A stretch of 64,000 bases of DNA from an uncultured Verrucomicrobiae bacterium (lineage in GTDB: Bacteria; Verrucomicrobiota; Verrucomicrobiia; Chthoniobacterales; Chthoniobacteraceae). Below, piece after piece: positions 38,249 through 54,685 of this stretch. The number at the start of each line of letters is the position of its first letter. Positions within the stretch are counted from its first letter, which is position 1. The position numbers and the translations under genes are program-made. The stretch covers positions 1,728,001-1,792,000 of the forward strand of contig CAWIKF010000002.1 of assembly GCA_963836755.1 (NCBI GenBank), in the 5' to 3' direction. The notes under the pieces were generated by a model. The model had not been told where the DNA came from. It worked only from the letters and a program-made list of their open reading frames with translations, and searched no databases.

Positions 38249-38303
38249 GCTCAACGGCACTACCGCGGATCAGTATAAGCGCCTGCGTTGGTTCTCATTA
38301 AAG
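38249..38303 (-). repeat. Possible eroded attC at the distal end of the array
   Basis: Minus strand CTTTAAT...CTGATC...GTTGAGC; inner arms poorly paired. Confidence 0.3.
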
Positions 38304-38520
38304 CAACGCACTCCGTCCTCGCTCGTAGCCGCCATGGTTCTCCACAAACTCGTGAAAATCGTTTTCCGCGCGGCGCTTGGATTCCGAGAGAGATGAAATG
38401 CCACGGTCTGACTCGCCGAGCGGCGCGTAGAAGAAGAACCGAAAGGAAAGTCGATGCTTCGAGAATAGGTAAAGTCCGCCAAACTCGCGGTCGGAATAGA
38501 CGCGCTACGAAATCCAAACG

Positions 38521-38582
38521 AAACGATGAGAACAAGATCAACTAAAGGACCAAGCCTTCTTAGCTCCAGCGCATGGCTAAGC
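38521..38582 (-). repeat. attC-like site (R' box lost)
   Basis: gagaacaagatcaact...ttagctccagcgcatggctaagc; the arsC stop lies in the R'' box. Confidence 0.75.
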
Positions 38583-39017
38583 CCTTTGCCCGCTGGGACA
38601 CTGCGTGTCGCACCAATGCTGAACCTGCTGCTGAATCGTGTCGCGAATCTCGCGGACACGCTGCAGGCGCGCCTCGCGCGTGCCTGTGAGAGCCGATGGG
38701 TCGGGGAAGCCCCAGTGAAGCCGCTGCCCGCCGCCGGGAAAAATCGGACACCGCTCCGCACTCGCGCCATCACAAACCGTGATTACGTGCGAAAAGGCGC
38801 GCCCGCTTTGCAGCATCTCGTCCACGCTCTTCGTGCGATGGCCCGAGATGTCGATGCCCACCTCCTGCATCGCCTCGACCACCAGCGGATTGAGCGTGCC
38901 CGGCTCCAATCCCGCGCTGTGCGCCTCAAAAAACTCCGGGCAAAGCCGATTGAGAAACGCCTCGGCCATCTGGCTGCGCGCGCTGTTGTGGATGCAAACG
39001 AACAAGACTTTCTTCAT
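38577..39017 (-). CDS. arsC: Arsenate reductase, LMW-PTP family
   Basis: [35 protein letters not shown]. Confidence 0.92.
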
Positions 39018-39052
39018 GGTGTTGTCGCGGGTAAACGCGCCAGAGATGTGTA

Positions 39053-39451
39053 TCAAAGTTGGCCGCGCTTGTCACGGGACACGGCATCGAAAAGCAGCTT
39101 ACCCTCTCCTTCGATCACCGCGCGATGCGCTGGATAAAGCGCGATGTCCTTGATCTTCGTCCTGCTGAGCGTTCTCACCTTGATGTGACTCCCATCCGTC
39201 AGCGCGAAGATACGGAGTGGAGATGCGCTGCCTATGTCAAAATCGGGCTCGCCCAGGATTCGTAGCACACCTTCATACGCGTCGGCAGAGGTGAAAGCCT
39301 GTAGCAGCGGGACGACAACACAAGCGTCGCGACTCGGGGGCTTCGACGGCGGCTGAGCTGCAGACGCACCTACAGCAAAGGCGAAAAGAAGAACCAGATA
39401 AGTGCGCTTCCAACCATGAGCGCCAAGAGGCTTTCGGACATCGCCAGTCAT
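39053..39451 (-). CDS. Hypothetical secreted protein
   Basis: Signal-like [28 protein letters not shown]; start uncertain. Confidence 0.6.
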
Positions 39452-39867
39452 AGCAGTTTCTTAAAATAGGTCGCTGACTCGACATACCCAATGCTCTGGT
39501 AAAAAGGTGCGGCGCGGCGTGTCGCCAAAGCGATCATCTTCGACTGACGGCTTCTCGCCCACTGCTCGAAACTCTCCATCAACTGCCGGCCAACCCCGCG
39601 TCGGCGGACGTCCTCGCAAACCATGATCTCAGCAACCCACGCAACCCGGCCGTTCGCATAAAACGTGTGCTGGTCAAACCCCAAAAGATAACCAACGACT
39701 CGGCTGGTATCCGAAGCAACCGCGATGCGAGCCTCTGGTGACTGAAGCAACGCATCAAAAAATGACTCGAACGCAGGCCGCGCGACCGAGAACGACGTGG
39801 CGAACAAGCTCGCCAAAGAGAATAACGCGTCGCTATCGGTCGACCGTGCTGGACGAATGCTGAACAT
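39448..39867 (-). CDS. GNAT family acetyltransferase
   Basis: IRPA start, VCEDVRRRGVGRQL acetyl-CoA motif, AAPFYQSIGY. Confidence 0.9.
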   Translation of the reverse strand: MFSIRPARSTDSDALFSLASLFATSFSVARPAFESFFDALLQSPEARIAVASDTSRVVGYLLGFDQHTFYANGRVAWVAEIMVCEDVRRRGVGRQLMESFEQWARSRQSKMIALATRRAAPFYQSIGYVESATYFKKLL

Positions 39868-39901
39868 CGTCAGTGGCTGCAGCCGTCCGTGTGCATTCGT
39901 T

Positions 39902-40729
39902 TCATTTCTCTTGAGGCTTTTTGATCCCGGCCTTGTCGAAGTCCTGTTCGAGAAATTCGAGCACTTCCGAGCTGAAACCAGATTGCTTCACCGCAGCCGA
40001 CGGCAAAATCGCAATCAAGCCATTGGCAGTTTCTTCGTTATACTCATCCCTCTTCGTTTCCCATTGATCTGCGAGCGTCGGGTCGCTCGGTTTGTTGCCG
40101 TCGTTCAGACCGAGTTGATTCATCGCCGTCGCGCGTTGAGTCATGAGCGACTCCACTTGTGTCGCCTGCGCATCCGTCAGACCGCCCGCCTCCTGAAGCA
40201 TACTGCGAAAGAAGCGTCCATATTCAGCCGGGCTATCTTGGAATCCCGTGATCTCAGGGAGCATTCCCTCCACGGTCGCATGGTTTCTCTGGAGTTCCAT
40301 CAGACGGTGCCTTTCATCCGCCGTGAGCGTCCCTGCTTCACGGCTGGAGAGCTCCTGAAGCTCGCCGAGCTCTCGAAGGATCGCACCTGTCCGCTTGCCG
40401 ATGTCCTCCACCTTCCCAAATGAAACAATGACTTCACCCGCATGTTGACCGAGTTGCGCGCGGAGGGCTGCATTGTCTTCCTCCACCTTTTGCCGCATGC
40501 GTTGTTCCGCCGCGATGCGTCGTTTGAGAACTTCATCGGCGGAAGAATCTGACTGCGTGGGTTGGGGAGCAGGAGCTGGTTCCGACTTTGACGCCACCTG
40601 TGGCACTGGTCCGGCCGGTTCCGAAGCCGCGCGTGGGCTTCGCTCTTTAATAGACCACCAGAATGCAGAGATGCCGATGATGCAAACCAGAATCCCGGTG
40701 ATGGCTAGCGTAATCGTTCTTCCGTTCAT
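39902..40729 (-). CDS. Hypothetical membrane-anchored helical protein
   Basis: N-terminal TM, Pro-rich linker and coiled-coil; 275 aa. Confidence 0.75.
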   Translation of the reverse strand: MNGRTITLAITGILVCIIGISAFWWSIKERSPRAASEPAGPVPQVASKSEPAPAPQPTQSDSSADEVLKRRIAAEQRMRQKVEEDNAALRAQLGQHAGEVIVSFGKVEDIGKRTGAILRELGELQELSSREAGTLTADERHRLMELQRNHATVEGMLPEITGFQDSPAEYGRFFRSMLQEAGGLTDAQATQVESLMTQRATAMNQLGLNDGNKPSDPTLADQWETKRDEYNEETANGLIAILPSAAVKQSGFSSEVLEFLEQDFDKAGIKKPQEK

Positions 40730-40778
40730 AAAACTTGTGGAGAAATCATTCTGATTTGTGGCACAGGCGTGTAGCAAC

Positions 40779-40838
40779 GCTTAACGAAAACAAGCCAAGC
40801 TACAGGCGGAGCCTTTCAACTGCGCCGCATCATTAAGC
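40779..40838 (-). repeat. attC-like site
   Basis: gcttaac gaaaacaagccaagctacaggcggagcc...gcatc attaagc; 60 bp; stop TAA in R''. Confidence 0.8.
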
Positions 40839-41300
40839 GCCATTGGTGCGAATCAAAATCGTCTGAGCTTCGGTATAGGCAAGTATTCGCTGAAAGAAGC
40901 GTCCATCGCGGAAGTGAAAGTGGACTGTATAACCCTTCTCTCCATCGCAGCCGGTCATGGAAAAAACAATGTCCTTGCCGTTGATTGACACTCTCGCGGG
41001 GCGATCGACGTAGAGCCATAGAAGATCCTCGACGAAAGCTTCTGGGACTCGATAGGTAACGCCTCCGCACGAGAAGCTCAGGTTGCGGGTGTGAAGATTA
41101 GTGGGGCCGCTGTAACCATACCAATGGAGGACCAGTCTCTCGGTCTGCAAAGTCGCTTGCTCAGCGCGCACCGTCACCGGCTGCGGGAAATAGTAATCCT
41201 GTCGTTTGGTGGTGTGTGATACCGAGTGCCAGGGAGAGGCAGCATCCAAAGGCTGCGCGAACAAGACTAGTGCGACCAGTGTGCCGATCAAGATGCGCAT
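40833..41300 (-). CDS. Hypothetical secreted cassette protein
   Basis: ATG 41300 just after an attC; signal peptide MRILIGTLVALVLFAQPLDA. Confidence 0.75.
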   Translation of the reverse strand: MRILIGTLVALVLFAQPLDAASPWHSVSHTTKRQDYYFPQPVTVRAEQATLQTERLVLHWYGYSGPTNLHTRNLSFSCGGVTYRVPEAFVEDLLWLYVDRPARVSINGKDIVFSMTGCDGEKGYTVHFHFRDGRFFQRILAYTEAQTILIRTNGA

Positions 41301-41314
41301 AGCAATGGAATGAC

Positions 41315-41373
41315 GCCTCACAAGAACAGGATCAGCTACAGGCGAGTCTCTTAGTTGCATGGGATCGCTAAGC
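41315..41373 (-). repeat. attC-like site
   Basis: gcctcac aagaacaggatcagctacaggcg...ttagttgcat...gctaagc. Confidence 0.8.
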
Positions 41374-41374
41374 C

Positions 41375-41482
41375 TCATGGCTCGATGTTGGTGACCTCGA
41401 CTTCCATTCCACCGAGCGGCTTGGCCAAAAGATTGTAGACCGCAGCAAAGATCACGAAGAAGATGAAACCGAAGATCCCCAT
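41375..41482 (-). CDS. 35-aa hydrophobic mini-cassette ORF (MGIFGFIFFVIFAAVYNLLAKPLGGMEVEVTNIEP), possibly a truncated gene
   Basis: Only ORF between two attC sites 135 bp apart; stop adjacent to R''. Confidence 0.5.
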   Translation of the reverse strand: MGIFGFIFFVIFAAVYNLLAKPLGGMEVEVTNIEP

Positions 41483-41508
41483 GACTACATCGAGAATGCG
41501 CCAAAGTC

Positions 41509-41567
41509 TCCTAACAAAAACAAGCCGAGCTACAGCCGGAGTCTCTTAGCTGCATCGCTTGCTAGGC
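41509..41567 (-). repeat. attC-like site
   Basis: tcctaac aaaaacaagccgagctacagccgg...ttagctgcatcgctt gctaggc; stop TAG in R''. Confidence 0.85.
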
Positions 41568-42020
41568 CGCATCGCGGATGTTCGCTGCAGCGCCCTCGTC
41601 CGGCACCGTGTTCAACTGGACGATAGCAATCGCAGCCAGCAACAAATTGGCGGCAGGACAAATCGCAATCCACGACAGATGATGCTCCCATATCCAGTGA
41701 CTGCCTTCGATCAGAAAGGAAATCATCCCGAGCACACACAAGGTCATGGTTGCAACGCTCACCGCGGTGGCAATCCGCTTACCCGCGATCAAGCAGCCCG
41801 CGACACCCGCCGCGAACGCCGCAAGATAAGCCAGCACCGTCAGAAAGGAGAAGTCACTTTCAAACTGATAGCCCCAACCGTTCTGAAACGAACACTCGAA
41901 GTAATCCCAACTCCACGCCCACTTCCCCCAAATCCAGCTCACGACACCAAATCTCGTCGAGGCTAGCAAGAGGAGACCTAGGTAAAGCCAAAGCATCAAG
42001 ACAGCGTGCTTTGTTCTCAT
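41562..42020 (-). CDS. Hypothetical multi-TM cassette protein
   Basis: ATG 11 bp after an attC; about 4 hydrophobic segments. Confidence 0.75.
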   Translation of the reverse strand: MRTKHAVLMLWLYLGLLLLASTRFGVVSWIWGKWAWSWDYFECSFQNGWGYQFESDFSFLTVLAYLAAFAAGVAGCLIAGKRIATAVSVATMTLCVLGMISFLIEGSHWIWEHHLSWIAICPAANLLLAAIAIVQLNTVPDEGAAANIRDAA

Positions 42021-42031
42021 AAAAGCTAAAC

Positions 42032-42091
42032 GCCTAGCGAGAACAAGATCAGCTACGAGCCAAGCCTGTTGGCTCCAGCGCATGGTTAGGC
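42032..42091 (-). repeat. attC-like site
   Basis: gcctagc gagaacaagatcagctac...ttggctccagcgcatg gttaggc; 60 bp. Confidence 0.9.
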
Positions 42092-42107
42092 GTTGCGATC
42101 GAGTTCG

Positions 42108-42446
42108 TCATGCGCGTCCGTGGGTAAAGCGATCTCTTTGCTGTCGGTCAAATCGATGGTTCGAGTTCTTGACGAGGAGAACGATCACCGTGATGGCACT
42201 AAAAAACAGACCGAGAAAGAACCATAGCCAAGCACTGCGATGAGTGTTCTGCGCCCACAACGCGCAAAAAGTTCCGAATAGCATCAGAACCAAGCCGGTA
42301 TCTCCGGCGTCCTTCACTTCATGGTCGAGTTGGAATACACGCTGCTCTAGCTGTGACATGCGGGCATCTTCGTTTTGTTGCGCCGATGCGTTTATCGTAA
42401 CGCAGGAGAACAGGAAAATAACAGCGAGAAAGAATCGGATGTTCAT
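42108..42446 (-). CDS. Hypothetical membrane cassette protein
   Basis: Signal peptide; CALWAQNTHRSAWLWFFLGLFF. Confidence 0.8.
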   Translation of the reverse strand: MNIRFFLAVIFLFSCVTINASAQQNEDARMSQLEQRVFQLDHEVKDAGDTGLVLMLFGTFCALWAQNTHRSAWLWFFLGLFFSAITVIVLLVKNSNHRFDRQQRDRFTHGRA

Positions 42447-42464
42447 AAAAGATGTGAGAGTGAC

Positions 42465-42524
42465 GACTAACAAGAACAAGATCAGCTACCGGCGGAGCCC
42501 ATTCGCTGCATCGCAAGGTTAGGC
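42465..42524 (-). repeat. attC-like site (best conserved)
   Basis: Minus strand GCCTAAC cttgc GATGCAGC ... GCTGATC ttgttctt GTTAGTC; stop TAA in R''. Confidence 0.92.
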
Positions 42525-42800
42525 GTTGCGGTTCTTTGGTGTAAGTAAGCGAATGACATAGGAAATAAACTCAACGGCCCCGAGATAGAATCCGCCGATG
42601 ACTAGCCAGGTGATGACGTGAAAAACGTAACCGTGCTGGTGAAGATGTCGCTGGTGCTCAATGTAATCCGCTGCCGACATCGAGTTGAGTCGGCTCAAGA
42701 CCGATGCGTCATAGCCGTGCGCAAGCCACGCGATGCCGAGAGTCAAAACAATGAGTGCTGCAACTTTGGGCAATGGACTTGGTCTTGTTGCGTTTTCCAT
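42519..42800 (-). CDS. Hypothetical 2-TM cassette protein
   Basis: Two hydrophobic segments flanking a His-rich loop; bounded by attC sites. Confidence 0.75.
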   Translation of the reverse strand: MENATRPSPLPKVAALIVLTLGIAWLAHGYDASVLSRLNSMSAADYIEHQRHLHQHGYVFHVITWLVIGGFYLGAVEFISYVIRLLTPKNRNA

Positions 42801-42825
42801 CAATTGTCTTGGGTGCGCGAGTAAC

Positions 42826-42870
42826 GGCTAACTAGAACAAGCTCAGCTACAGGAGGAGCCTTAGCTGCAT
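42826..42870 (-). repeat. Truncated attC-like site (R'' missing)
   Basis: ggctaac tagaacaagctcagctacaggaggagccttagctgcat, then unrelated sequence. Confidence 0.8.
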
Positions 42871-42900
42871 TTTAACTCTCCCCGCCGCCGCTCGCGCGGT

Positions 42901-44178
42901 TCACTTGCCGGACATCTGCATCGCATATTGCATCGGTGCGGGACGAATCCTGAAGAATACCCACAGGCCAATGGGGTTATCGCCATAAAGCGCGTCGAGG
43001 CTCGAAGGCTTGAAGTTGTAGGTCACGGATGCGCCAAAGGCGACTGAATACGGCTTGTTCGGCGTGAGTTCGTGGGTGGCTCCCAAGGTCAGTTCGGTAA
43101 CTCCAAACTTCTTGCGCTCGGGCTCGATGGCGAGTTCTTCACCCGTCTTCTGGACGTATTCGATACGGCCGAAAATGGAGTTGCGGTTGGCGATGTCCAG
43201 GTTGGTTTCCAGCAGCACGGCATCGGAGTTAATGCCCGCCTCGTTGTTCATGCCCCAGGCGAGAGTCGTGGCCCAGTTGCCACCGTCGCGCAAAGGCAAG
43301 TTGTAAATTGCACTCGCCGTGGCGCGCCGCACACTGTCCTGCGGATGAAGTTCCTCCGGACTTTTTAGATAGCCATAGGAACCTTGGAAGCTCCAATGGT
43401 CGGTGGGATTGTAAGTCAGGCGGCCTGCGTAGGAATCAAGATGGATCGTGTCGATGTTCCAGCGATCTTCATCCGGTTCGCGTCCGTTGAAGATGGAACC
43501 TTCGAGGCGGAACTTCTCGTAGCTCACACCGAGTGTCGCGACGCCGAAGGAGATGTGGGTCGAGTCCAGCCAATGATGTGTGATCGGCGCCGCGGGATTG
43601 TCCGCCGCGGATGCACGGTGCATGAACGCAGGCGGCCCAAGCGCCGGCTCGCCCGATGGAGCCAGATACAAGGAAACGGCCGCCTGATCACTGAGCGGAT
43701 AGCTATAGCTAGCGCCCAGCTCCATGAAAAGATCGTGCGGGTGCTGCCGGTCCACCAAAGTCCCGCCATGGAAAGCCTCGCCGCTTTGGAAAAGCAACGG
43801 GTAACCGTGCGCCGTCGTCGTGGCAGGCTCCAGGCTAAACATCGATCGCAGCATCAGTTCGCCTTTGCCGAGGGGATGAGTCCCCATCAGCATGAACCAG
43901 TTGATCGAGTTAAATTGATCGTCTCCGCGCCTGCTCCATTGCTTGTCATAGGAGAGAAAGGCGTTGAAGTGACTCATCACCATCCACCCGTCCAGCATCG
44001 AATGGTAAGCACGCATCGGAGTGGAATCCGGCTGCCACGAAGTCCCCGATGCCTCGCGAGACATGGGAATGCCGCCGGGCGATTGCATGTCCATGCCCGC
44101 CATATCATGGTGCTCCTCCGCGGTCGCCAAGCTGGCCGCGAGCAGGAAGACTGAGACTATGTTTGAAATTCTGCGCAT
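42901..44178 (-). CDS. Secreted/outer-membrane protein with His/Met-rich N-terminus
   Basis: Signal peptide, EEHHDMAGMDM, SGTSWQP, DRQHPHDLFMEL, HHWLDSTHI; alternating beta-strand pattern. Confidence 0.8.
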   Translation of the reverse strand: MRRISNIVSVFLLAASLATAEEHHDMAGMDMQSPGGIPMSREASGTSWQPDSTPMRAYHSMLDGWMVMSHFNAFLSYDKQWSRRGDDQFNSINWFMLMGTHPLGKGELMLRSMFSLEPATTTAHGYPLLFQSGEAFHGGTLVDRQHPHDLFMELGASYSYPLSDQAAVSLYLAPSGEPALGPPAFMHRASAADNPAAPITHHWLDSTHISFGVATLGVSYEKFRLEGSIFNGREPDEDRWNIDTIHLDSYAGRLTYNPTDHWSFQGSYGYLKSPEELHPQDSVRRATASAIYNLPLRDGGNWATTLAWGMNNEAGINSDAVLLETNLDIANRNSIFGRIEYVQKTGEELAIEPERKKFGVTELTLGATHELTPNKPYSVAFGASVTYNFKPSSLDALYGDNPIGLWVFFRIRPAPMQYAMQMSGK

Positions 44179-44365
44179 GGCGTTGTGCCGTGACCGCAGA
44201 AGCGACGCTATTGGCTCATGCCGCGACGAGCAAGAGCATATTAATAATAGGTGCGCGCGAGCCGTTTCGGGGACTAATGTTACTGCAGGGCGGCGACTTC
44301 TAGGACGAGCGCGGCGTCTGAGATGTCGCCGTTCAATGGAAACGGCCATGCGAATGGTCGGATGA

Positions 44366-44695
44366 TTAGATGTGTCTCTCGGACACGGATGCCTGCACAT
44401 GTTGCATGAGCTGGGTGCGAAAATAGAGAAATCGGCCCGCGAAGAACCAGCTGGTCGGGATGAAACATGCAAGGAGCAATAAGAGCAGGCCTCCAGCGAG
44501 GATGCTTGCTCTTAAACCGAGAGGGCCAAGCTGGAGGGCTGACAGGAAAACGAGGATGCCAAAACAGGCGAAGGAGACGACAGCCATGACTCCAAAGGCA
44601 AGGCTAAGCGCAAATGCTTGGGATGAGCGTGCCTTTAAAACTTTCCCTTGATCACTGAAGTAACTGGAAGCAAGTCGGTCAGAGGGAGTGTCCAT
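44366..44695 (-). CDS. Hypothetical 2-TM cassette protein
   Basis: ATG just after an attC; stop in an ATCTAAT R''-like box. Confidence 0.65.
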   Translation of the reverse strand: MDTPSDRLASSYFSDQGKVLKARSSQAFALSLAFGVMAVVSFACFGILVFLSALQLGPLGLRASILAGGLLLLLLACFIPTSWFFAGRFLYFRTQLMQHVQASVSERHI

Positions 44696-44699
44696 GGCG

Positions 44700-44756
44700 G
44701 CGTAATGGAGAAGATCAGCTACAGGTCAGCCCTTGAGCTGCGTCGCATGGTTGGGA
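44700..44756 (-). repeat. attC-like site (R' degenerate)
   Basis: gcgtaat ggagaagatcagctacagg...agctgcgtcgcatg gttggga. Confidence 0.8.
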
Positions 44757-45245
44757 TCATGGCGATAGGATCGCATACACGGTAAAGAAAGCGCCCAATA
44801 AGAGGGGAAGAATGATCGCGATCATCGGACCGTTGCGCAAGAAGGAGAAGCTGGGTTTGGAAGGATCGTAACGGACGATCAATGAAGGCGCGGTTGCAAG
44901 ACGCTCGATGGATCTCTTCGCCGACTCGGGAGAGCTATGACCGAGTGAGCAAATACTGTAGACGCGACTGGAAGAAAAGTCCGAGCCATGCACGGAGTAG
45001 GAATAGGAAAGCTCTTCGGAATAGGAATGCTGACTTGTTTCAAGCGAAATGCCAGTGCTGGTGATGCGTCCATCGGTCTGCGGGAATCGCGTGAATCTTA
45101 GGAATCTATAGAGCGAGGTGAGTCCCCACACCAAGCACATCGGGGCGATGATAAGAAAGCCCACGCGCGTGAGTCGGCTCATTGGAGTAAACTCCATGCC
45201 AGCTCCCAGAAGAAGCGAGACTGTCGTCGCGAGGGATAGCATCAA
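44757..45245 (-). CDS. DUF3592-like membrane protein (start uncertain)
   Basis: TM, FPQTDGRI, YSYSVHG, VRYDPSKP, C-terminal TM. Confidence 0.65.
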   Translation of the reverse strand: MMLSLATTVSLLLGAGMEFTPMSRLTRVGFLIIAPMCLVWGLTSLYRFLRFTRFPQTDGRITSTGISLETSQHSYSEELSYSYSVHGSDFSSSRVYSICSLGHSSPESAKRSIERLATAPSLIVRYDPSKPSFSFLRNGPMIAIILPLLLGAFFTVYAILSP

Positions 45246-45329
45246 AGTAAGGGGTAGTCGCGCCGAGTAGTAGATCAGAGGCTGGCTAAGTCAAGCGTGA
45301 AGCCCGAACCAGCCGCGTCGCGTGGTGTG

Positions 45330-45577
45330 CGATTGGTTCAGAATGGATTTGGAACGTCTTCAAGGTCTTTAATGCGCCGTTTCGTAGCCGCGAACGGTGA
45401 ATAGCGCCACCCCGAACATCATCCCGAGCGGGAGAAGTCGCACCAGAAGCGCAGAGTGCGAAAGCGCATGGCGGCAAGCCCCTGCCAATGCAAGAGACTA
45501 ATCTCCAGGCAAAAAATAGTCGCCAATAGTGAGGTAACAATGAGCGACATGCTCCAAGGTGCTTTGTAGCGCTTCAT
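45330..45577 (-). pseudogene. Degraded cassette ORF (MKRYKAPWSMSLIVTSLLATIFCL...)
   Basis: Plausible N-terminus after an attC, then early stop; eroded attC-like sequence at about 45262-45330. Confidence 0.4.
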
Positions 45578-45601
45578 TTCGCGGAGCGAACTTATAGAGC
45601 A

Positions 45602-45682
45602 GCCTAGCAAGAACAAGACGAGCTACCCGCGGAGCCTGTCAGCGTCGCACTACAAGCCGGAAGCTCGGCGTCGCGGTTGCTA
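45602..45682 (-). repeat. attC-like site (right part rearranged)
   Basis: gcctagc aagaacaagacgagctacccgcggagcctgtcagcgtcgcac. Confidence 0.7.
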
Positions 45683-46342
45683 CTCTTTGTCCCACGCGAC
45701 CTTGCCGGTATCGAGGTCATACACGCCGGAAACGACCCGGACTTCTTTGCCGGCCGCGCCATAGCTGGCCTCCTTGCGGATCTTCGCAGCGACCAGCCGG
45801 GCGTTCTCGTCAATCGTCAGATCCAGTATATTGCCCTGCTTGCCCTTCGTGGCTCTGACGGCAGGCTGGATGTCGCGAACCAAATAGCGCACATGGCCGG
45901 GAGCCGAACTACTGTCCAAGGCGGCCGTCACGGCACCGCACCGCTCGTGTCCGAGGACTACGATGAGGCGCGAGCCCAGATGATCGACCGCATATTCGAT
46001 GCTCCCCAGGCCGTAGTCATCCACCAGGTTGCCAGCCGTGCGGACCACGAAAAGATCGCCGATGTTCTGGTCAAAGACGATCTCAGGTGCCGTGCGGGAG
46101 TCGGAGCAGGCGACGACGACGGCGAAAGGATGTTGACCTTGCGCGGTTTCCGCCCGTTTGGCGGCATTCGGTTTGCCTTCGGAGATCTTGCTGCTGGCAA
46201 AGCGGGCATTGCCCTTCTTGAGTTTCGCGAGTGCGGCTTCGGCACTGACGGAGGGAGTGGAATGGTCGGAAGCGAAGCCAGCCCCAGCGAGGCTGAGGAA
46301 GCTAATGAACGTGATGAGCGTGAGTTTCGAGGCGGTTTTCAT
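45680..46342 (-). CDS. Secreted beta-class carbonic anhydrase
   Basis: Signal peptide, LKKGNARF, CSDSR, GDLFVVRTAGN, GSIEYA, HERCGAV. Confidence 0.95.
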   Translation of the reverse strand: MKTASKLTLITFISFLSLAGAGFASDHSTPSVSAEAALAKLKKGNARFASSKISEGKPNAAKRAETAQGQHPFAVVVACSDSRTAPEIVFDQNIGDLFVVRTAGNLVDDYGLGSIEYAVDHLGSRLIVVLGHERCGAVTAALDSSSAPGHVRYLVRDIQPAVRATKGKQGNILDLTIDENARLVAAKIRKEASYGAAGKEVRVVSGVYDLDTGKVAWDKE

Positions 46343-46400
46343 AATGCAGTCATTGGTTTTGGTTGCGGTCGTTGGAAAACTGGAGTGACGTGAGGAGCAG

Positions 46401-46423
46401 TTCGCTGCAGCGCATGGTTATGA
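46401..46423 (-). repeat. attC half site (R''/L'')
   Basis: ttcgctgcagcgcatggttatga. Confidence 0.65.
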
Positions 46424-46492
46424 AAAGACAACCAACGCTACCAACAAGATGAGTGCGGCTGTCGTTGCAATCCACTGGAGCGTCCGTTTCAC
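46418..46492 (-). CDS. 24-aa hydrophobic mini-cassette ORF (MKRTLQWIATTAALILLVALVVFS)
   Basis: GTG start 17 bp after GTTAGGC (46516-46510); stop TAA within the TCATAAC R'' box. Confidence 0.45.
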   Translation of the reverse strand: MKRTLQWIATTAALILLVALVVFS

Positions 46493-46620
46493 TGCGACTC
46501 GGCGAATGCGCCTAACATCCTATTGCGCCGACTGGTATCAGCCTATCGCACAAAGTCTCTGTCGGCATGAGCTGGAGAGTGTCAGCGGGGATTATTTTGT
46601 CAATGAGAATAGGTTGATGG

Positions 46621-46672
46621 TGAAAAGTGAAGGCTACACGCGCAGCCTCTTCACTGCATCGCACGGTTAGGG
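46621..46672 (-). repeat. attC-like site (R' lost)
   Basis: gctacacgcgcagcctcttcactgcatcgcacggttaggg. Confidence 0.7.
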
Positions 46673-46688
46673 CGACATAGGCTGTTAA

Positions 46689-47309
46689 TTATTGAGGCGG
46701 ATTATAATCCGAGTCCCCCGGCATCAAATCTTCATTAACGCACACGCTCTCACTCAACTTCCCTCCGTGATCATAATGCAGTTCGATTACCCAGCAGAAG
46801 ACATTCTCGGGCCAGGTGCCTTGGGGTAAAAGTTTAGCGGGGTCCGCCCCGAGCGCATTGAGGAGCTCGGGGATCTTCCCGTGATGCCAGCTGATGAGGA
46901 TTTGTTTTCCATCGCGCCCGGCCTTGATCTCGCGAGCGAGACTCTCGAAGTCATTGTTTTTAAATCTGAGATCGATGGGGAGGCCGATGGCTTTGCTCAA
47001 TGGTTCAATCGTCTGGCGCGCGCGCGTGTTGTTATCGTGGTCGGCGCTGGCGAAGAGGTGATTGATCTGCACCGGCTGCGCAAAGGCGGTGCAGTGTCGG
47101 AAATAATGCGCATAGGCCTTTGCCCGCGCCTCACCGGCGGGCGTGAGGCCGCCACCGGGCGGCTCTTGCTTTTCCGCGTGCCGCACGATCAAAACCGTAG
47201 CGTCACGTAACCCTTTCGTCGTCGTCGGTGGCTTTGCCAGCGGCTTCTTCGAGAGACCTACGGAAGACGCCAGCATTAAGAGCGTGCAGGAGAGAAGGAT
47301 TCTTTTCAT
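46689..47309 (-). CDS. Secreted histidine-phosphatase-like protein
   Basis: Signal peptide, LIVRHAEK, LTPAGEARA, RARQT, ILISWHH. Confidence 0.8.
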   Translation of the reverse strand: MKRILLSCTLLMLASSVGLSKKPLAKPPTTTKGLRDATVLIVRHAEKQEPPGGGLTPAGEARAKAYAHYFRHCTAFAQPVQINHLFASADHDNNTRARQTIEPLSKAIGLPIDLRFKNNDFESLAREIKAGRDGKQILISWHHGKIPELLNALGADPAKLLPQGTWPENVFCWVIELHYDHGGKLSESVCVNEDLMPGDSDYNPPQ

Positions 47310-47341
47310 ACGTGGTGGCTTCTGTGAAACGGAATATCGCC

Positions 47342-47956
47342 TTACATCCTCACGGCGCGTTCATGGCTCCAAAACATTGAATCTTTGCGTTGGACAACAT
47401 CTAATATGTAAAGGCGTTCTTCATTCTTTGGCCCATTCGAGAGACTGTCGATTACGACGATCTCCGCGCCGAAGTCAAACTCGATGATTGTTCTCTTCTT
47501 GTAGGTTCGCGTCGCGTATTGAACGAAGCGCACTCCTCGACACGCACCTCTTCGCGAAAGATCGCTGAGAACTCTGAGCAGCGTTGAATACAAGACAATT
47601 GTTGGCTGACGTGTGAACCGAGCACCGCTGACAAGAACCATTTTGTTCTCTGCTCGTCGAATGACGACAGCTTTCTTTGGGTGTCTCTGTGATCGGAATG
47701 TCAACGCGTTCGGGGCAACTTCGCAATTCACGGAGCGACCAAACTGATCTAGAGCTTCCTTATCTGGAGCGACCTTGAGTAAGCTGCGAAAGAGCGACTC
47801 GATAAAGCAGATCGTCGCATAATCATTCTTCTGAATGATCTGCGGATAACCGTCTTGCGGGTAAGGGCTATATTTAGTCCGGGTTACTGGGTCAGCTTCG
47901 GCTGCAGCGCGCGAAATAAATAGGCACGCGCATGTGGCAGCGATGAGGAGATTCAT
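47342..47956 (-). CDS. Hypothetical secreted cassette protein
   Basis: Signal peptide; ATG 21 bp after an attC. Confidence 0.65.
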   Translation of the reverse strand: MNLLIAATCACLFISRAAAEADPVTRTKYSPYPQDGYPQIIQKNDYATICFIESLFRSLLKVAPDKEALDQFGRSVNCEVAPNALTFRSQRHPKKAVVIRRAENKMVLVSGARFTRQPTIVLYSTLLRVLSDLSRRGACRGVRFVQYATRTYKKRTIIEFDFGAEIVVIDSLSNGPKNEERLYILDVVQRKDSMFWSHERAVRM

Positions 47957-47977
47957 GGGGGAAGGTGCGTCTTTAGC

Positions 47978-48038
47978 GCCTGACGAAAATTAGAGGAGCT
48001 ACAGGCCGAGCCCCGCTAGCCGCAACGCATGGTTAGGC
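47978..48038 (-). repeat. attC-like site
   Basis: gcctgac gaaaattagaggagctacagg...tagccgcaacgcatg gttaggc; stop TAA in R''. Confidence 0.85.
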
Positions 48039-48228
48039 GGCGACCTCATAGGAAAATTTAGGAGTGTCGCCGCGCTTGGTTGCGTGCTCGACAGTGATTC
48101 CGGCGATCTTCCCTTCGCGGTGCAAGTCCAGCAGCATGTTCTCATCCACGGTCGCGCGTTTCGGCGACTTCAACGGCCTTGAATTCGATGTAAAGGGTAT
48201 CGGTATCTTGAAAGTCTTGAATCTTCAT
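48033..48228 (-). pseudogene. DUF2283-like (putative antitoxin) gene with a +1 frameshift
   Basis: MKIQDFQDTDTLYIEFKAVEVAETRD / VDENMLLDLHREGKIAGITVEHATKRGDTPKFSYEVAA*; 196 nt = 3n+1. Confidence 0.75.
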
Positions 48229-48435
48229 GGCGTGAATGAACGATCAAAGAATGGGTTATGCACAGTCTCCCCGTCTGCAAGAAGTATAACGCGCAAGTAT
48301 CTGCCGTCTATCTCGGAAATAGCTGCCCAACGGCGAATGCGGCCATCCTGCCGAATCGTCTCGCGAACGGGATGGTCCCACCGCGCGCTGAATCGACTCC
48401 ATGTCGATCATAGCTCGACCCGGGCGTAGGCGCAT
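48225..48435 (-). pseudogene. Small putative toxin-like gene (DUF4258/RelE-like) with a +1 frameshift, probably 5'-truncated
   Basis: MRLRPGRAMIDMESIQRAV / DHPVRETIRQDGRIRRWAAISEIDGRYLRVILLADGETVHNPFFDRSFTP*; ATGA overlap with the DUF2283-like gene. Confidence 0.6.
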
Positions 48436-48447
48436 TTAAGATGATGT

Positions 48448-49089
48448 TCACGGTATCGGGATAGTCTGTCTGCACTTCGGATAGTTCGGACAACCATAGA
48501 ACTTGCCACGGCTGCTGCTGCGAATGACCAGCGTGATACCACACTTGGGACAAAGTGGTGCAGAAGTAGCATCCTGCGGAACTGGTGTTGATGGCGGCAG
48601 AGCACCTTCGGAAAAGAAAGTTGGCAGCCGGGATGTGATCTCCGAAACATTGTAAACCCGCTGCGTCGGAAAGCGTAAAAGTGTCAGCCCGGAAGCTTCA
48701 AAGACCTTTTGGACAAGGGCATCGCGTGTCTGGCGATCCTCGCGAGCATGGCTGGAATCATCGAGTTCGATACCTACACGGGGACGCATTGAGCGACTGT
48801 CGCACAACAAGAAATCAACGTGCTTGCGGGAAATGCGGTTCTTTGCGGCTTGATTTTGGTCGGGGCGAGAAACATAGAAGATGTCACTGAGGTTGACCTT
48901 GGGACAGACGGTGAACCTATCGCCTGCGGCCGAAAGGAGAATGTGGTAAAACGAAATCTCGGCGGCGGAAAGAAAATCGTCGCGGAGACGAAACGGGAAG
49001 GAGTGAGGAGCAGAAGCGGAAGGACCAATGCCAAACAGGCGAAGAACCAGACCGACACAGCCTGACTTATCACTAGATGCTTTGCTCAT
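48448..49089 (-). CDS. DUF2726 domain protein with C-terminal topoisomerase C4 zinc ribbon
   Basis: FLSAAEISFY, KHVDFLLCD, IELDDSSH; CPKCG...FYGCPNYPKC. Confidence 0.9.
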   Translation of the reverse strand: MSKASSDKSGCVGLVLRLFGIGPSASAPHSFPFRLRDDFLSAAEISFYHILLSAAGDRFTVCPKVNLSDIFYVSRPDQNQAAKNRISRKHVDFLLCDSRSMRPRVGIELDDSSHAREDRQTRDALVQKVFEASGLTLLRFPTQRVYNVSEITSRLPTFFSEGALPPSTPVPQDATSAPLCPKCGITLVIRSSSRGKFYGCPNYPKCRQTIPIP

Positions 49090-49123
49090 GGCGAAAGTGC
49101 CCCATAGGTTGTCGTTTGGTTAG

Positions 49124-49195
49124 TCCTCACAGATAAGCCGAGGTGCTGGTATCGCTGTCGGCCATGTTGCCGGCAATTAGCTCCGGATGTGCCCG
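49124..49195 (-). repeat. Eroded attC-like (or attI-position) site at the proximal end of the array
   Basis: tcctcac agataagccgag ... ttagctcc resembles both arms of the family. Confidence 0.4.
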
Positions 49196-49258
49196 CAACG
49201 TGCCGATTTTCACTGAAAACGGGCGGCAGGGCAAGCCTGTATCGATAAGAAATGTGCG

Positions 49259-49425
49259 AGGTGATCCTCGTCCCAAGGGCGAAACGAACCGAGGTCAAAG
49301 CGGTGACCGCTTTAAATAAAGCGACGATCGGCTGGGTTTAGGCGGTGAGCCCTCATATTAACCAGCGAGTGGCTGGATTCATCGCGTCGCCGCCTGTATT
49401 CGAGTCGTCACCGCTCAAGAAAAAA
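49259..49425. repeat. Degenerate 21-bp tandem repeat, same family as 54308-54685
   Basis: cggtgaccgctttaaataaag, cgacgatcggctgggtttagg, gcgtcgccgcctgtattcgag. Confidence 0.7.
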
Positions 49426-49532
49426 AGTTGCTGCCGTAATGCTCCCATAATATTGCGGCTCCTAAGTTTGCTTCCATCAAGTGCTGTAAGCACAAACAAT
49501 AAAACAAACAAAACAATCCATAGACTGACAAA

Positions 49533-50039
49533 ATGAAAAAACATACTACCGTCAAATGCGCCATTGCCCTCCTGAGCGTTTCCGTTTTCAGCACATCGCT
49601 GATCGCCAAAGCTGAGGATAAGGAAGAATCAACAACGATGGAATCCATTCCAGCGGCTGCAGCCAGTGCGATCAAGAAACAGGCGGCGGGCGCGAAGATC
49701 ACCGGTGTCTCGAAGGAAGACGAGGATGGCAAAACCGTTTATGAAGCGAAGATCAAGGCGAACGGCAGCGTGCGCGAAGTCAGTGTGGACAGCAACGGGA
49801 AAGTCGCCAGCGTTGAAGAGGTGATCCAGCTCTCCGGCGCGCCGGAAGCGGTCCGCACAGCGATCGAAGCGGATAGCAAGGGCGGCAAAGTCGAGAAAAT
49901 CGAGAAGGTTAACGAGGGTGGCAAAACCACCTTCGAGGCGCTTATCTCCGCCAAAGGCAAGCGCGAGGAAGTTGTTTTCTCGCCCGAGGGCAAAGTAGTC
50001 ACGCGTGAAGACAAGAAACACGATAAGGACAAGGACTAA
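49533..50039 (+). CDS. Secreted PepSY-like repeat protein
   Basis: Signal peptide; two repeats of P-A-x..G-K-I..E.GKT.YEA..EV..G. Confidence 0.85.
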   Translation: MKKHTTVKCAIALLSVSVFSTSLIAKAEDKEESTTMESIPAAAASAIKKQAAGAKITGVSKEDEDGKTVYEAKIKANGSVREVSVDSNGKVASVEEVIQLSGAPEAVRTAIEADSKGGKVEKIEKVNEGGKTTFEALISAKGKREEVVFSPEGKVVTREDKKHDKDKD

Positions 50040-50089
50040 AACAACTGCACGCGGACGCAAAAGGCAGGCATTTGCGAAATGTCTAACGG

Positions 50090-50118
50090 GGCCGCCGGCA
50101 AACTCCTTGCCGGCGGCC
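50090..50118. other. Perfect 12-bp GC-rich hairpin (intergenic; possible mRNA stabiliser or terminator)
   Basis: ggccgccggcaa-actcc-ttgccggcggcc, no U-tract. Confidence 0.6.
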
Positions 50119-50145
50119 TCGGTTGCGCAATAGACGTTCTAATCT

Positions 50146-50895
50146 ATGAATACCGAAAAACTCAGCAAAGTCCCGGAAGTCACACTCATCTTCTGGATCA
50201 TCAAAATCCTGGCGACGACTCTCGGCGAGACGGGCGGTGATACTGTCTCGATGTCGATGAATCTCGGCTATCTGGTCGGCACTGCCATCTTTGCCGTCAT
50301 CTTTCTGATCGCGGTGGCCATCCAGATTCTCGCGAAAAAGTTTCATCCGCTGATTTACTGGACGACGATTGTCGCGACGACGACGGTGGGGACGACTTTG
50401 GCCGACTTTGCGGATCGTTCGCTCGGCATTGGCTACGCGGGCGGCTCGGCGATCTTGCTTTGCCTGCTCGGGGCGTCGCTTTTCATTTGGAAGCGAACGA
50501 TGGGTTCGGTCGCGGTCGATACGGTCAGCTCGCCGAAGGCGGAGATGTTTTACTGGGTGACGATCATGTTTTCGCAGACCTTGGGAACGGCGCTCGGCGA
50601 TTGGACGGCAGACACGGCGGGAGTCGGCTACGGGGGAGGGATCGTAGTCTTCGGGAGTTTGCTCGCGGTGATCGCCGCGGCCTATCTTTGGACGAAGATT
50701 TCGCACACTGTCTTGTTCTGGGCGGCGTTCATTCTTACGCGTCCGCTCGGCGCGGTGGTCGGCGATTTTCTGGATAAGCCAGTCGCACACGGTGGGCTGG
50801 CACTGAGCCGCTACTCTGCGTCGGCCGCGCTTGTTGTGCTGATGCTTGTCTTCATCTTTTGCTTTCCGCATCGGCCGGCGAGGCGGACGCATTGA
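50146..50895 (+). CDS. COG4705/DUF347-repeat membrane protein
   Basis: SKVPEVTLIFWIIKILATTLGETGGD, TLGTALGD, FWAAFILTRPLGA. Confidence 0.9.
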   Translation: MNTEKLSKVPEVTLIFWIIKILATTLGETGGDTVSMSMNLGYLVGTAIFAVIFLIAVAIQILAKKFHPLIYWTTIVATTTVGTTLADFADRSLGIGYAGGSAILLCLLGASLFIWKRTMGSVAVDTVSSPKAEMFYWVTIMFSQTLGTALGDWTADTAGVGYGGGIVVFGSLLAVIAAAYLWTKISHTVLFWAAFILTRPLGAVVGDFLDKPVAHGGLALSRYSASAALVVLMLVFIFCFPHRPARRTH

Positions 50896-50934
50896 AGCCC
50901 GCGATGAAAATCGGGCTCTAAGTCTACATCGACG

Positions 50935-52796: not shown

Positions 52797-52863
52797 TCTT
52801 CGCGGAGCAAGGCCAGTAACCTATTTTAGAATGCACAACTGGCTTCCAAGGTGAACGCACGCG

Positions 52864-54321: not shown

Positions 54322-54685
54322 TATCAAGTGGTGACCGGCTTTGTTCAAGCGACGACCGCCTCGGTTAAAGGAGTGACCGCCTTTGTTCACGCGGTGACCG
54401 GCTTGGTTAAAGGAGCGACCGCTTGGTATAAAGCGATGACCGCCTTGGTTAAAGGCGCGACCGCTTGATATAAAGCGGTGACCGGCTTGGTCAAAGGAGC
54501 GACCGCTTGATATAAAGCGGTGACCGCTTTGGTTAAGGGAGCGACCGCTTGATATAAAGCGACGACCGCCTTGGTCAAAGGAGCGACCGCTTGATATAAA
54601 GCGATGACCGCTTTGGTCAAAGGAGCGACCGCTTGATATAAAGCGACGACCGGCTTGGATTAAGCGGTCGCCGCCTTGGTTCAAG
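54308..54685. repeat. 18 x 21-bp tandem repeat with 42-bp higher-order alternation
   Basis: gagcgaccgcttgatataaag-type units alternate with cg(g/a)(t/c)gaccg..ttggt(t/c)aaag-type units; 378 bp = 18 x 21. Confidence 0.95.

Follow-up and report, generated by a model that had tools for sequence, protein, structure and literature searches.

An integrase-less cassette array in a Chthoniobacterales genome

The window analysed here is a stretch of 64,000 nt from an uncultured Verrucomicrobiae bacterium described as a soil bacterium (assembly GCA_963836755.1, contig CAWIKF010000002.1, positions 1,728,001 to 1,792,000 of the forward strand; GTDB lineage Bacteria; Verrucomicrobiota; Verrucomicrobiia; Chthoniobacterales; Chthoniobacteraceae). 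At positions 38,249 to 49,195 it carries an array of about 20 minus-strand ORFs, as confirmed by ORF listing, interspersed with copies of a single repeat family. A sequence-only reading had taken this locus for an integrase-less integron cassette array, and our analysis bears this out: the repeats belong to the same attC family as those beside the only IntI of the genome (G000; relatives are numbered G001 and so on), and one ORF resembles a cassette that stands first in a complete integron of the relative G015.

Features of the array and its surroundings (window coordinates; z, against shuffled controls)
38521..38582, minus: attC, last site of the array, eroded with R' match lost (z 11.3, no R-box pairing)
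38577..39017, minus: ArsC/LMW phosphatase ORF, stop inside R'' (PF01451, 3.6e-16; host-like GC3 0.78)
39053..39451, minus: ORF of 132 aa without own attC; no Pfam family
39448..39867, minus: GNAT acetyltransferase ORF without own attC (PF00583, 3.4e-14)
39902..40729, minus: ORF of 275 aa without own attC; no family above cut-off
40779..40838, minus: attC (z 15.0)
40833..41300, minus: cassette ORF of 155 aa, stop inside R''; no Pfam family
41315..41373, minus: attC, eroded (z 13.8)
41509..41567, minus: attC (z 15.1); its variant R'' and the core where the site's own cassette begins on the 5' side carry the same variant (compensated pair)
41562..42020, minus: cassette ORF of 152 aa, stop inside R''; no Pfam family
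42032..42091, minus: attC, best-folding of the array (alignment z 17.4, fold z -2.2)
42108..42446, minus: cassette ORF of 112 aa; its homologue in G015 (64% identity) holds the first position in a complete integron
42465..42524, minus: attC (z 16.9; pairing 6/7 and 7/7)
42519..42803, minus: cassette ORF of 94 aa, stop inside R''; no Pfam family
42826..42871, minus: attC without R'' (alignment covers reference positions 14-60 only)
42901..44178, minus: ORF of 425 aa, GC3 0.72; weak porin/beta-barrel matches under cut-off
44366..44695, minus: ORF of 109 aa without own attC; no Pfam family
44700..44757, minus: attC, eroded (z 10.2)
44757..45245, minus: DUF3592 cassette ORF (PF12158, 9.9e-8)
45602..45649, minus: attC without R'' (z 8.8)
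45680..46342, minus: beta-carbonic anhydrase ORF between two half sites (PF00484, 7.3e-36; GC3 0.74)
46390..46423, minus: left half (R''-L'') of an attC (z 5.9)
46621..46673, minus: attC with eroded right arm (z 10.1)
46689..47309, minus: ORF of 206 aa; weak histidine-phosphatase match under cut-off
47342..47956, minus: ORF of 204 aa without own attC; no Pfam family
47978..48038, minus: attC with eroded L' (z 13.4)
48033..48435, minus: broken two-gene unit, a short ORF then an interrupted DUF2283 ORF (PF10049, 0.0018)
48448..49089, minus: first ORF of the array, DUF2726 and topoisomerase zinc ribbon (PF10881, 1.8e-30)
49090..49530, no strand: array head with neither attI nor an intI remnant detected; near 49120 there is no more than a weak R''-like remnant (z 2.7)
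49293..49346, no strand: remnant of a 21-bp tandem repeat (83% to 54.6 kb)
54324..54663, no strand: 21/42-bp tandem repeat array of the type found beside several attI copies of this genome
55950..56093, plus: fibronectin-III gene remnant, divergent from the array (PF00041, 1.1e-4, below cut-off)

The attC sites were detected with an HMM and a PWM built in this analysis. The reference for aligning the window sites was the intact 60-nt attC from the array beside IntI, and shuffled sequences served as controls. All 11 repeats that had been called between 38521 and 47978 are real attC sites (alignment scores 63 to 96, shuffle maximum 37 to 45, z 8.8 to 17.4), so that the array is a CALIN. A left-half remnant at about 46390-46423 is real as well. 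The array forms one cluster of 12 sites, which satisfies the CALIN definition of two or more attC sites no further than 4 kb from each other; neither intI nor a pseudogene of it lies nearby, and the intI plus attI that head a complete integron were both not detected here. Six to eight of eight other inter-ORF positions tested were at background (z -0.6 to 2.7). The family consensus has the box layout R''-L''-L'-R' with an extrahelical base and spacers of a fixed 5 nt (32/32) and mostly 8 nt (26/28). We had considered the 8-nt L'-R' spacer as a novelty and dropped it, as it lies inside the published range of unpaired spacers of up to 10 nt (PMC7370490). Stop codons (TAG or TAA) fall inside R'' at all six places where they had been reported (38577, 40833, 41562, 42519, 46418, and 48033), and start codons, noted earlier at about 5 to 50 bp past R', were found at 10 of the 11 sites (first ATG after 4 to 52 nt) but not within 120 nt at 38521. 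Across the genome, 20 of 29 cassettes have an R'' that is closer to the R' upstream than to its own R', versus 4 with the opposite (p 0.0015); when cassette 5' ends in the window were compared with their own R'', one clear compensated case was seen among 5 pairs, and the rest were mixed.

The repeats described as palindromes of about 60 bp are mostly degenerate, and the array is heavily eroded. In MFE folds a closed R box is seen at 3 of the 11 sites, only the one at 42032 folds better than its own shuffles (1/11), and near-complete box pairing is seen at 1 of 12. Both boxes pair with P > 0.5 at none of 6 automatically paired window sites, compared to 8 of 30 sites in the solo-attI arrays described below, and bottom-strand folding of intact family members is found for 2 of 3 in the IntI array. 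The sites at 42826 and 45602 lack R'', the median attC score is low (41 vs 62, p 0.026), and no decay gradient runs along the window array (rho +0.34, p 0.28).

Cargo, head, and flanks of the array

Contrary to what had been implied, not every ORF is a cassette: the ArsC, beta-barrel, and carbonic anhydrase ORFs have host-like GC3 (0.72 to 0.78), and the 425-aa ORF at 42901..44178 is likely not an original cassette. There is one ORF per attC in the core at 40.8-42.9 kb, about half of the array ORFs lack an attC of their own, and a single attC is common to four ORFs (39902-38577). The broken two-gene unit at 48033..48435 is presumably similar to bacterial toxin-antitoxin systems. A Pfam family was matched above a cut-off by 5 of 18 array ORFs and a PADLOC system by none of the 18; Rfam gave no match in the window. 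Scans of the array found promoters no more often than expected by chance (3 vs 5.8) and terminators not clearly above shuffles. No recent cassette duplication between arrays was detected, the best shared ORFs being 82-85% identical.

At the 5' end of the array, the PepSY gene (49533-50039, E 8.8e-6) and the repeat remnant that had been noted there are both present, the latter matching the repeats at 54.3-54.7 kb. A tandem repeat with a divergent FnIII remnant also stands beside 5 of 9 attI heads in G000 (background 4.9%); relatives did not show this association between attI and tandem repeats (2 TRF matches upstream of their 74 solo sites). We discarded the sole attI candidate in the window (48289-48316, E 0.08-0.13), as it falls within a coding frame. 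Synteny is broken at this locus, with an MFS gene that abuts aas in G001, G002, and G014 but lies 615 kb from it in G000. Bottom strands of the window attC sites are on the likely lagging-strand template, which is the excision-prone orientation, given an uncertain origin position: the KOPS switch is clear at about 2.0 Mb with none at dnaA, and neither whole-sequence nor third-position GC skew placed the origin. Contigs of three DNA runs were compared with the window array and the array at C2:1463-1482 kb, and in X1, the only run found to contain this DNA, no joint cleanly removes a cassette; at a depth of about 2-5, the X1 contigs are uninformative on cassette activity. No RNA run is listed as containing this DNA.

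A single IntI and many integrase-free attI copies

As had been noted, the window contains no tyrosine recombinase (0 of 9 PF00589 matches in the genome), and the nearest match, about 25 kb from the array, is not an IntI. The whole-genome IntI profile search that had been proposed as a check returned one match above the cut-off (474.5 vs 265 bits for TIGR02249), which lies outside the window. This single intact IntI (C2:765053-766066, 1.0 Mb from the window array) has an open frame, the IntI-specific insertion, and the catalytic motifs, whose residues we take to have their usual roles. Its own array is short (4 attC sites), and the genome holds 86 sites in 22 clusters, among them 11 integrase-free clusters of at least 2 sites and ten single sites; within any cluster, all sites are on one strand at gene ends. 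The expectation that IntI is normally divergent from its array does not always hold in Chthoniobacterales, where the co-oriented order of intI then attI (G270, G242, and G075) occurs as well as the divergent one.

Besides the attI next to intI (C2:766120), G000 has eight further copies of this site without an integrase, six of them near-exact and two eroded; solo copies lie, for instance, at C2:1267105, C2:1340977, C2:1426371, C2:1471642, C2:1698748, and C1:703689. The near-exact copies match the 19-nt core with 0-2 mismatches (score 30-31; 0 shuffled matches of at least 19), and with an attI model trained only on relatives, every one of the nine heads in G000 is detected (E 1e-11 to 0.03; best reversed-genome match 0.16). 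In sequence these copies equal the site next to the cognate intI, and the junction with their cassettes is at the G/TT core. Five of them head attC arrays, and the first-cassette R'' equals the attI core in 7/7 positions at 6 of 6 testable heads, that of IntI included. Neither tblastn nor an intI-tail HMM detected an intI remnant near the solo copies of G000; an intI-start leader is present at the copy at C2:1426371, where the first attC also shares 116 of 119 positions with its counterpart in the IntI array. Between copies the leaders have diverged (83-95%), and behind such heads stand attC arms that match the consensus perfectly. In the four solo arrays long enough for such a test (39 sites), the attC score drops with distance from attI (rho -0.68, 0/5000 permutations), though this score favors the commonest attC type and the gradient could predate intI loss. 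The end of the attI spacer equals that of the attC spacer in G000, G002, and family f14 and differs from it in f6.

We examined 88 attI motif sites in relatives (one duplicate, L107 = L163, is kept in the counts of 88, 74, and 67); a reversed control pattern also matches 0-6 times per genome (4 in G000), so that raw motif counts include chance matches. IntI or a piece of it lies within 300 bp of 8 of the 88 sites, whereas around 74 of them 1.4 kb or more is free of it. Same-strand attC arms follow 47 of the 67 integrase-free sites with at least 1 kb downstream, the other 20 having none, and arms are far denser downstream of sites (188 in 252 kb) than upstream (2 in 172 kb). The 7-nt core of first cassette and attI matches exactly in 33 of 37 cases and in 21 of 24 among less common core variants (0/10000 permutations). 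Different species retain a solo attI at four orthologous loci, where the flanking gene is 70-91% identical, but the DNA downstream of it is unrelated and the first cassette differs. Some solo sites lie only 6-30 nt past the end of a housekeeping gene's coding frame. Scars of intI accompany about 11 of the 74 solo sites, as IntI C-terminal tails directly upstream of 6-7 (G270 and G285; no control below E 0.9) and intI-start leaders at about 4 more. Five intI copies are present in G015, and no IntI-level match was found in G037, G285, G202, and G280, which have 4-8 motif matches each. A stricter attI pattern is absent from 292 genomes outside Chthoniobacterales; similar sites occur beside some proteobacterial IntI.

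The window array as a probable part of a distributed integron

By itself, the window array is an ordinary decaying CALIN. Viewed together with the rest of the genome, it is probably (at about two chances in three) an old outpost, by now mostly frozen, of a distributed integron whose single IntI, at a distance of 1.0 Mb, would act in trans on eight solo attI copies. The suggestion that the array is orphaned or serviced in trans thus stands in part: an IntI that could act in trans exists, but the array looks largely frozen, with eroded attC sites and no attI detected. The lack of attI also makes its link to the solo-attI system indirect; this link rests on the attC family, the tandem repeat, and the FnIII remnant at the head. 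Under the distributed model, attI platforms would increase in number, in part at least, as complete intI-attI units from which intI is lost later, and a surviving attI would keep gaining or losing first cassettes via IntI in trans. The window array would have been built in this manner, or split from an array so built, and then have lost its attI; from then on, its changes would have been limited to deletions, point decay, and the arrival of ordinary genes by insertion; its lagging-strand, excision-prone orientation would favor the survival of attC sites that do not fold. Poor folding also in some solo-attI arrays (the 8 of 30 sites above) counts against this model, as do the 20 of 67 solo motif matches without an attC arm, and the intI scars and the four genomes with motif matches but no IntI fit plain relics.

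One alternative is that each solo-attI array, and the window array with them, is what remains of a complete integron acquired or duplicated as a whole and then deprived of intI, with no service in trans and with first-cassette differences that predate the loss. The intI tails and leaders, including the leader at C2:1426371, the five intI copies of G015, and the four genomes in which no IntI was found would all fit it, and intI loss is among the routes to CALINs listed in the available part of PMC4889954. Solo sites so close behind housekeeping stop codons leave no room for a scar, however, unrelated first cassettes at orthologous sites would need independent intI loss in each lineage, and consensus-perfect attC arms stand behind heads with diverged leaders; we consider this account unlikely. 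Somewhat less doubtful, though still the weaker option, is that the window array never had an attI and either grew at its own attC sites from an off-target attG insertion or was cut from a larger array by chromosomal rearrangement. It would explain the head without attI, the array without decay gradient, and the synteny break, and the ten single attC sites elsewhere fit attG insertion (10.1101/2022.09.11.507474). But attG insertion was proposed for single or small clusters and not for 12 sites, and the head has the tandem repeat and divergent FnIII remnant seen beside 5 of 9 attI heads of this genome. The solo-attI result elsewhere in the genome would be unaffected.

We give practically no weight to the idea that the repeat has nothing to do with integrons and is a dispersed palindrome of the REP kind or a terminator. 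Spread over 22 clusters and poor folding of most window copies are what it would predict, but the family has ordered boxes with regular spacers and no Rfam match, its sites share one strand within each cluster and lie at gene ends, and it flanks cassettes beside IntI, whereas REP or BIME elements are short palindromes in either orientation without recombination core. The complementarity of cassette ends together with the linkage to IntI refutes this idea.

Whether the distributed integron extends to Chthoniobacterales at large seems to us an even bet. In this wider form, attI would be a self-contained module of 30-55 bp, of which one chromosome may have as many as about ten integrase-free copies, frequently placed directly after housekeeping genes, vertically inherited, and still loaded by one IntI in trans or a passing one, and the window array would be one that lost its platform. 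The left end of the module resembles an IntI core, so IntI itself may insert it. If true, many CALINs would be live capture platforms and not debris.

Comparison with known systems

Our literature search found no earlier paper on such a distributed integron. Like CALINs as surveyed (PMC4889954), the window array has at least 2 attC sites, no intI nearby, mostly unknown cargo, and an IntI elsewhere in the genome, as is the case for half of all CALINs according to the available text of that survey; unlike most it is large, since by the same text 6.6% exceed 10 attC sites. Three or four routes to CALINs are listed in PMC4889954 and PMC8618304, and the accessible survey passages state that a search for attI was not feasible for the majority of integrons. 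The survey of PMC4889954 did not search for attI, so that attI-headed CALINs were invisible to it. Here, the cognate attI is readable beside intI and heads many integrase-free arrays, accompanied by an attI x attC junction signature and cassette turnover at orthologous loci, which makes service in trans directly testable with natural sites. This suggests that intI gene counts undercount gene-capture platforms in a soil lineage.

Sedentary chromosomal integrons share with this system a bona fide IntI, a homogeneous attC family, accessory repeats upstream of the attI core, and bottom strands of most arrays on the likely leading-strand template (PMC5371416), but here the array linked to intI has just 4 sites, the majority of cassettes are found in arrays far from it, several of which have an attI of their own, and both divergent and co-oriented intI-attI layouts exist in the order. 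SALINs and attG insertion (Loot et al., 10.1101/2022.09.11.507474) similarly disperse cassettes by an integrase acting away from its own locus, yet attG sites are described as different from attI in sequence and structure, whereas the heads seen here are recognizable copies of the cognate attI. Xanthomonas CALINs are likewise integrase-free arrays at positions conserved across species with intI elsewhere, though the available part of that report (10.1101/2025.06.18.660453) mentions no attI at them. Finally, attI and cassettes outlast intI also in deleted or inactivated integrons (class 2, the Xanthomonas ilvD locus, and IMU-flanked defective class 1), but these are single loci or mobile elements, while up to 8-10 platforms are found here at unrelated loci of one chromosome.

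The eroded array beside mutS-MFS

The source genome (G000; 3.18 Mb in 4 contigs, 96% complete) encodes a single integron integrase, IntI, 1.0 Mb from the array studied here, which occurs in a sequencing run of a soil metagenome. The features of the window that concern us are:

38249..49195, minus strand: cassette array
42108-42446: ORF with 64% identity to the cassette that comes first in a complete integron of G015, a relative
about 46.4 kb: half attC site
48033-48435: interrupted two-gene unit with a DUF2283 remnant
49293-49346 and 54324-54663: tandem repeats
49346-54324: PepSY – DUF347 – response regulator – GT87 – histidine kinase block

All 11 repeats listed by the sequence-only reading are real: their alignment scores against the intact 60-nt site next to IntI greatly exceed those of shuffles (z 8.8–17.4), and the six stop codons that it had placed inside R'' indeed lie there. 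A two-arm profile trained on this genome revealed one layout of R'', a 5-nt spacer (32/32 sites), L'' with one extra base, a variable loop, L', an 8-nt spacer (26/28) and R'. At scores of at least 18, the arms matched 70 and 61 times in the genome and never in its shuffled version, and 86 strong sites form 22 clusters, 12 of them with at least 2 sites. The 8-nt spacer was found in 17 of 41 genomes searched and falls inside the attC range given in the accessible part of PMC7370490. The same sites flank the cassettes adjoining IntI (C2:765056-766015; 474.5 bits, cut-off 265), and the window repeat is an attC; that it is instead REP-like has next to no chance. Among 29 consecutive cassettes genome-wide, R'' is closer to the upstream R', i.e., the cassette's own 5' end, in 20 and to its own R' in 4, with 5 ties (p 0.0015), a pattern that is the footprint left by IntI insertion. 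The earlier view of an integron cassette array is thus supported by the attC family shared with the IntI array and by the cassette homologue in the complete integron of G015, and a genome-wide search bore out that the window holds no tyrosine recombinase. About 10 kb past the window end lies a tyrosine-recombinase-like ORF (C2:1802317-1802550, L008; 458-aa frame, partial PF00589 match), which integrase profile searches rejected as IntI.

This is an old array, and an eroded one. R'' is missing from two sites, and several are degenerate; minimum free energy folds close the R box in 3 of 11 sites, only one site beats shuffles, both boxes reach P > 0.5 in none of six auto-paired sites, and near-complete box pairing is retained in 1 of 12. 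Of some 20 ORFs, about half lack an attC of their own. GC content is 0.55 versus 0.62 in mutS-MFS; three genes, namely ArsC, one resembling beta-barrel proteins, and carbonic anhydrase, are close to the host in GC3 (0.72–0.78; most small ORFs, 0.51–0.63) and are likely later additions. The Pfam cut-off was passed by 5 of 18 scanned ORFs, and PADLOC matched none of these 18. The interrupted two-gene unit resembles a bacterial toxin-antitoxin cassette. The attC bottom strands of the array probably lie on the lagging-strand template, an orientation prone to excision that would favour the persistence of sites unable to fold.

In three relatives (G001, G002 and G014) the MFS gene adjoins aas and the array is absent, and in G003 it has a different context; aas lies 615 kb away from the locus in G000, so that the locus is lineage-specific and coincides with a synteny break. 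At the array head, neither attI nor an intI remnant was detected, but a 21-bp tandem repeat and a divergent FnIII (fibronectin-III) remnant are present. This arrangement recurs within 1.5 kb of 5 of the 9 attI heads of the genome (background 4.9%) and was not found beside attI in most relatives; it links the window array indirectly to the attI copies described below. Around 51 loci of the genome carry 20–42-bp tandem repeats of unrelated unit sequence (including both in the window and L010:1140-1450), several of which precede FnIII-like or family-less genes of 200–350 aa and adjoin attI copies; they appear to form a dispersed unit of repeat plus gene that may be mobile. The PepSY-to-histidine-kinase block has the 21-bp repeat of the array head on both sides and looks like an insertion in that repeat array.

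Solo attI copies in the same genome

Copies of the site that separates intI from its first cassette also occur elsewhere without intI (solo attI):

C1:703689; C2:1267105, 1340977, 1426371, 1471642 and 1698748: intact copies, 0–2 mismatches over 19 nt
C1:274749 and C2:1277575: eroded copies

A shuffled genome gave no match at the score of the six near-exact copies, and an HMM built from relatives only recovers 9/9 attI heads. Searches by tblastn and a tail HMM found no intI remnant in the vicinity of the solo copies; the one at C2:1426371 shares the leader as far as the intI start codon. An attC array begins at five of the six intact copies; the sixth, C2:1698748, is followed by one ORF and no detectable attC. 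At all six testable heads, including that of IntI, R'' of the first cassette agrees with the attI core in 7/7 positions. The first attC at C2:1426801 and its counterpart in the IntI array are identical at 116/119 positions. Along the four long solo arrays, attC quality, scored in a way that favours the commonest attC type, declines away from attI (39 sites, rho −0.68, 0/5000 permutations).

Elsewhere, L052:3750-6430 (C2:1466754-1469429) has three attC sites behind a gene, upstream of an FnIII-like gene and a solo attI; one is 118/118 identical to the attC at C2:1426801, and the gene ahead of them looks like one for a phage portal protein. Near the likely terminus, a three-site array (L062; C2:2000500-2001100) starts behind a putative tRNA gene and a fragment resembling FnIII. 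In G000, G002 and family f14, the attI spacer and the attC L'-R' spacer share their final five bases (loci compared include L065), which provides short homology beside the crossover; family f6 does not show this.

Solo attI across the order

Of 301 genomes of the order, 57 contain matches to a degenerate attI pattern, at most 10 each and mostly in families f6 and f14; raw counts prove little alone because a reversed control also matched 0–6 times per genome. The 21 genomes with at least 3 matches (leaving out G189) hold 103 matches versus 20 IntI-type N-terminal domains. We examined 88 sites, a subset of the listed matches from which our own site and two duplicates were dropped and one duplicate (L107 = L163) was kept. 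At 8 sites, IntI or a piece of it lies up to 300 bp upstream, divergent or co-oriented, and the motif is thereby recognised as attI. Another 74 sites lack IntI over at least 1.4 kb, and 6 are too close to a contig end for this check. The motif also adjoins IntI in contigs titled Chthoniobacterales and Verrucomicrobiae. A stricter pattern had no match in 292 genomes outside the order.

Among the 67 solo sites that have 1 kb or more of sequence downstream, 47 are followed by same-strand attC arms; the arms number 188 over 252 kb downstream and 2 over 172 kb upstream, and 4 lie on the opposite strand. An exact match between first cassette and core is seen in 33/37 cases, including 21/24 with rarer core variants (0/10000 permutations). 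The element spans 53–55 or about 32 nt, with one or two palindromes of core-like arms, and beyond its left end conservation stops after about 7 nt. Four orthologous loci, in G037, G120, G175 and G202, retain the solo attI beside a flanking gene of 70–91% identity and have unrelated DNA downstream of it. Immediately ahead of 6–7 solo sites there are IntI tails, and about 4 are preceded by intI-start leaders. In four genomes with 4–8 matches (92–100% complete), no IntI was found.

Within the order, the same attI lies upstream of divergent intI or downstream of co-oriented intI (L120, L148 and L161 in G270, G075 and G242 versus L095, L103 and L146). G015 has five intI copies with near-identical attI (L020, L036, L039, L040 and L041), four of which share a 50-kb stretch of a single contig. 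Solo attI arrays may descend from such a state. Palindromic attI-like sites also adjoin IntI in Methylococcaceae and Gallionellaceae contigs (L177, L182, L188 and L243).

Origin of the arrays

We favour, with a probability of about 0.65, a model in which attI platforms multiplied, partly through intI loss from redundant integrons, and would still serve as substrates of a single IntI. Arrays would grow at the attI end and decay distally, and the window array would have lost its attI or been cut from an attI-headed array and now be decaying. IntI tails and intI-start leaders at solo sites imply that intI deletion produced at least some solo attI. Changes of the first cassette require attI × attC recombination and thus point to IntI acting in trans; the alternative is an independent loss of intI in every lineage.

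Solo-attI arrays might otherwise be inert relics, which we consider improbable; the gradient of attC quality could predate intI loss, and the exchanged first cassettes would then demand those independent losses. For the window array itself, insertion at an attG or rearrangement, with no attI ever involved, is a lesser possibility that agrees with its bare head and is compatible with the solo-attI result elsewhere; the repeat and FnIII remnant at this head point indirectly to the favoured origin from an attI-headed array.

Relation to known integron elements

The window array itself belongs to a known kind, the CALINs (attC clusters without integrase), whose listed origins and possible lasting link to a distant IntI are treated in the accessible part of PMC4889954, and CALINs and their origins also in that of PMC8618304. 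The parts available of further sources cover attG and SALINs (10.1101/2022.09.11.507474), CALINs at conserved positions (10.1101/2025.06.18.660453) and related matters (PMC2727003, PMC9229058, PMC7439510, PMC8352920, PMC8876359, PMC3575428). Across full-text literature, comprising main texts and few subscription journals, we found no description of multi-copy, integrase-free attI heading arrays. What is new is the system of solo attI copies to which the window array belongs, with its service by IntI in trans as the probable mode of activity. The spacing of the attI palindromes is probably similar to that of DR1/DR2 in attI1. The core-like arms of these palindromes also recall DR1/DR2, accessory repeats whose existence in attI1 is documented in the accessible parts of PMC3146285 and 10.1101/2022.02.06.479319.
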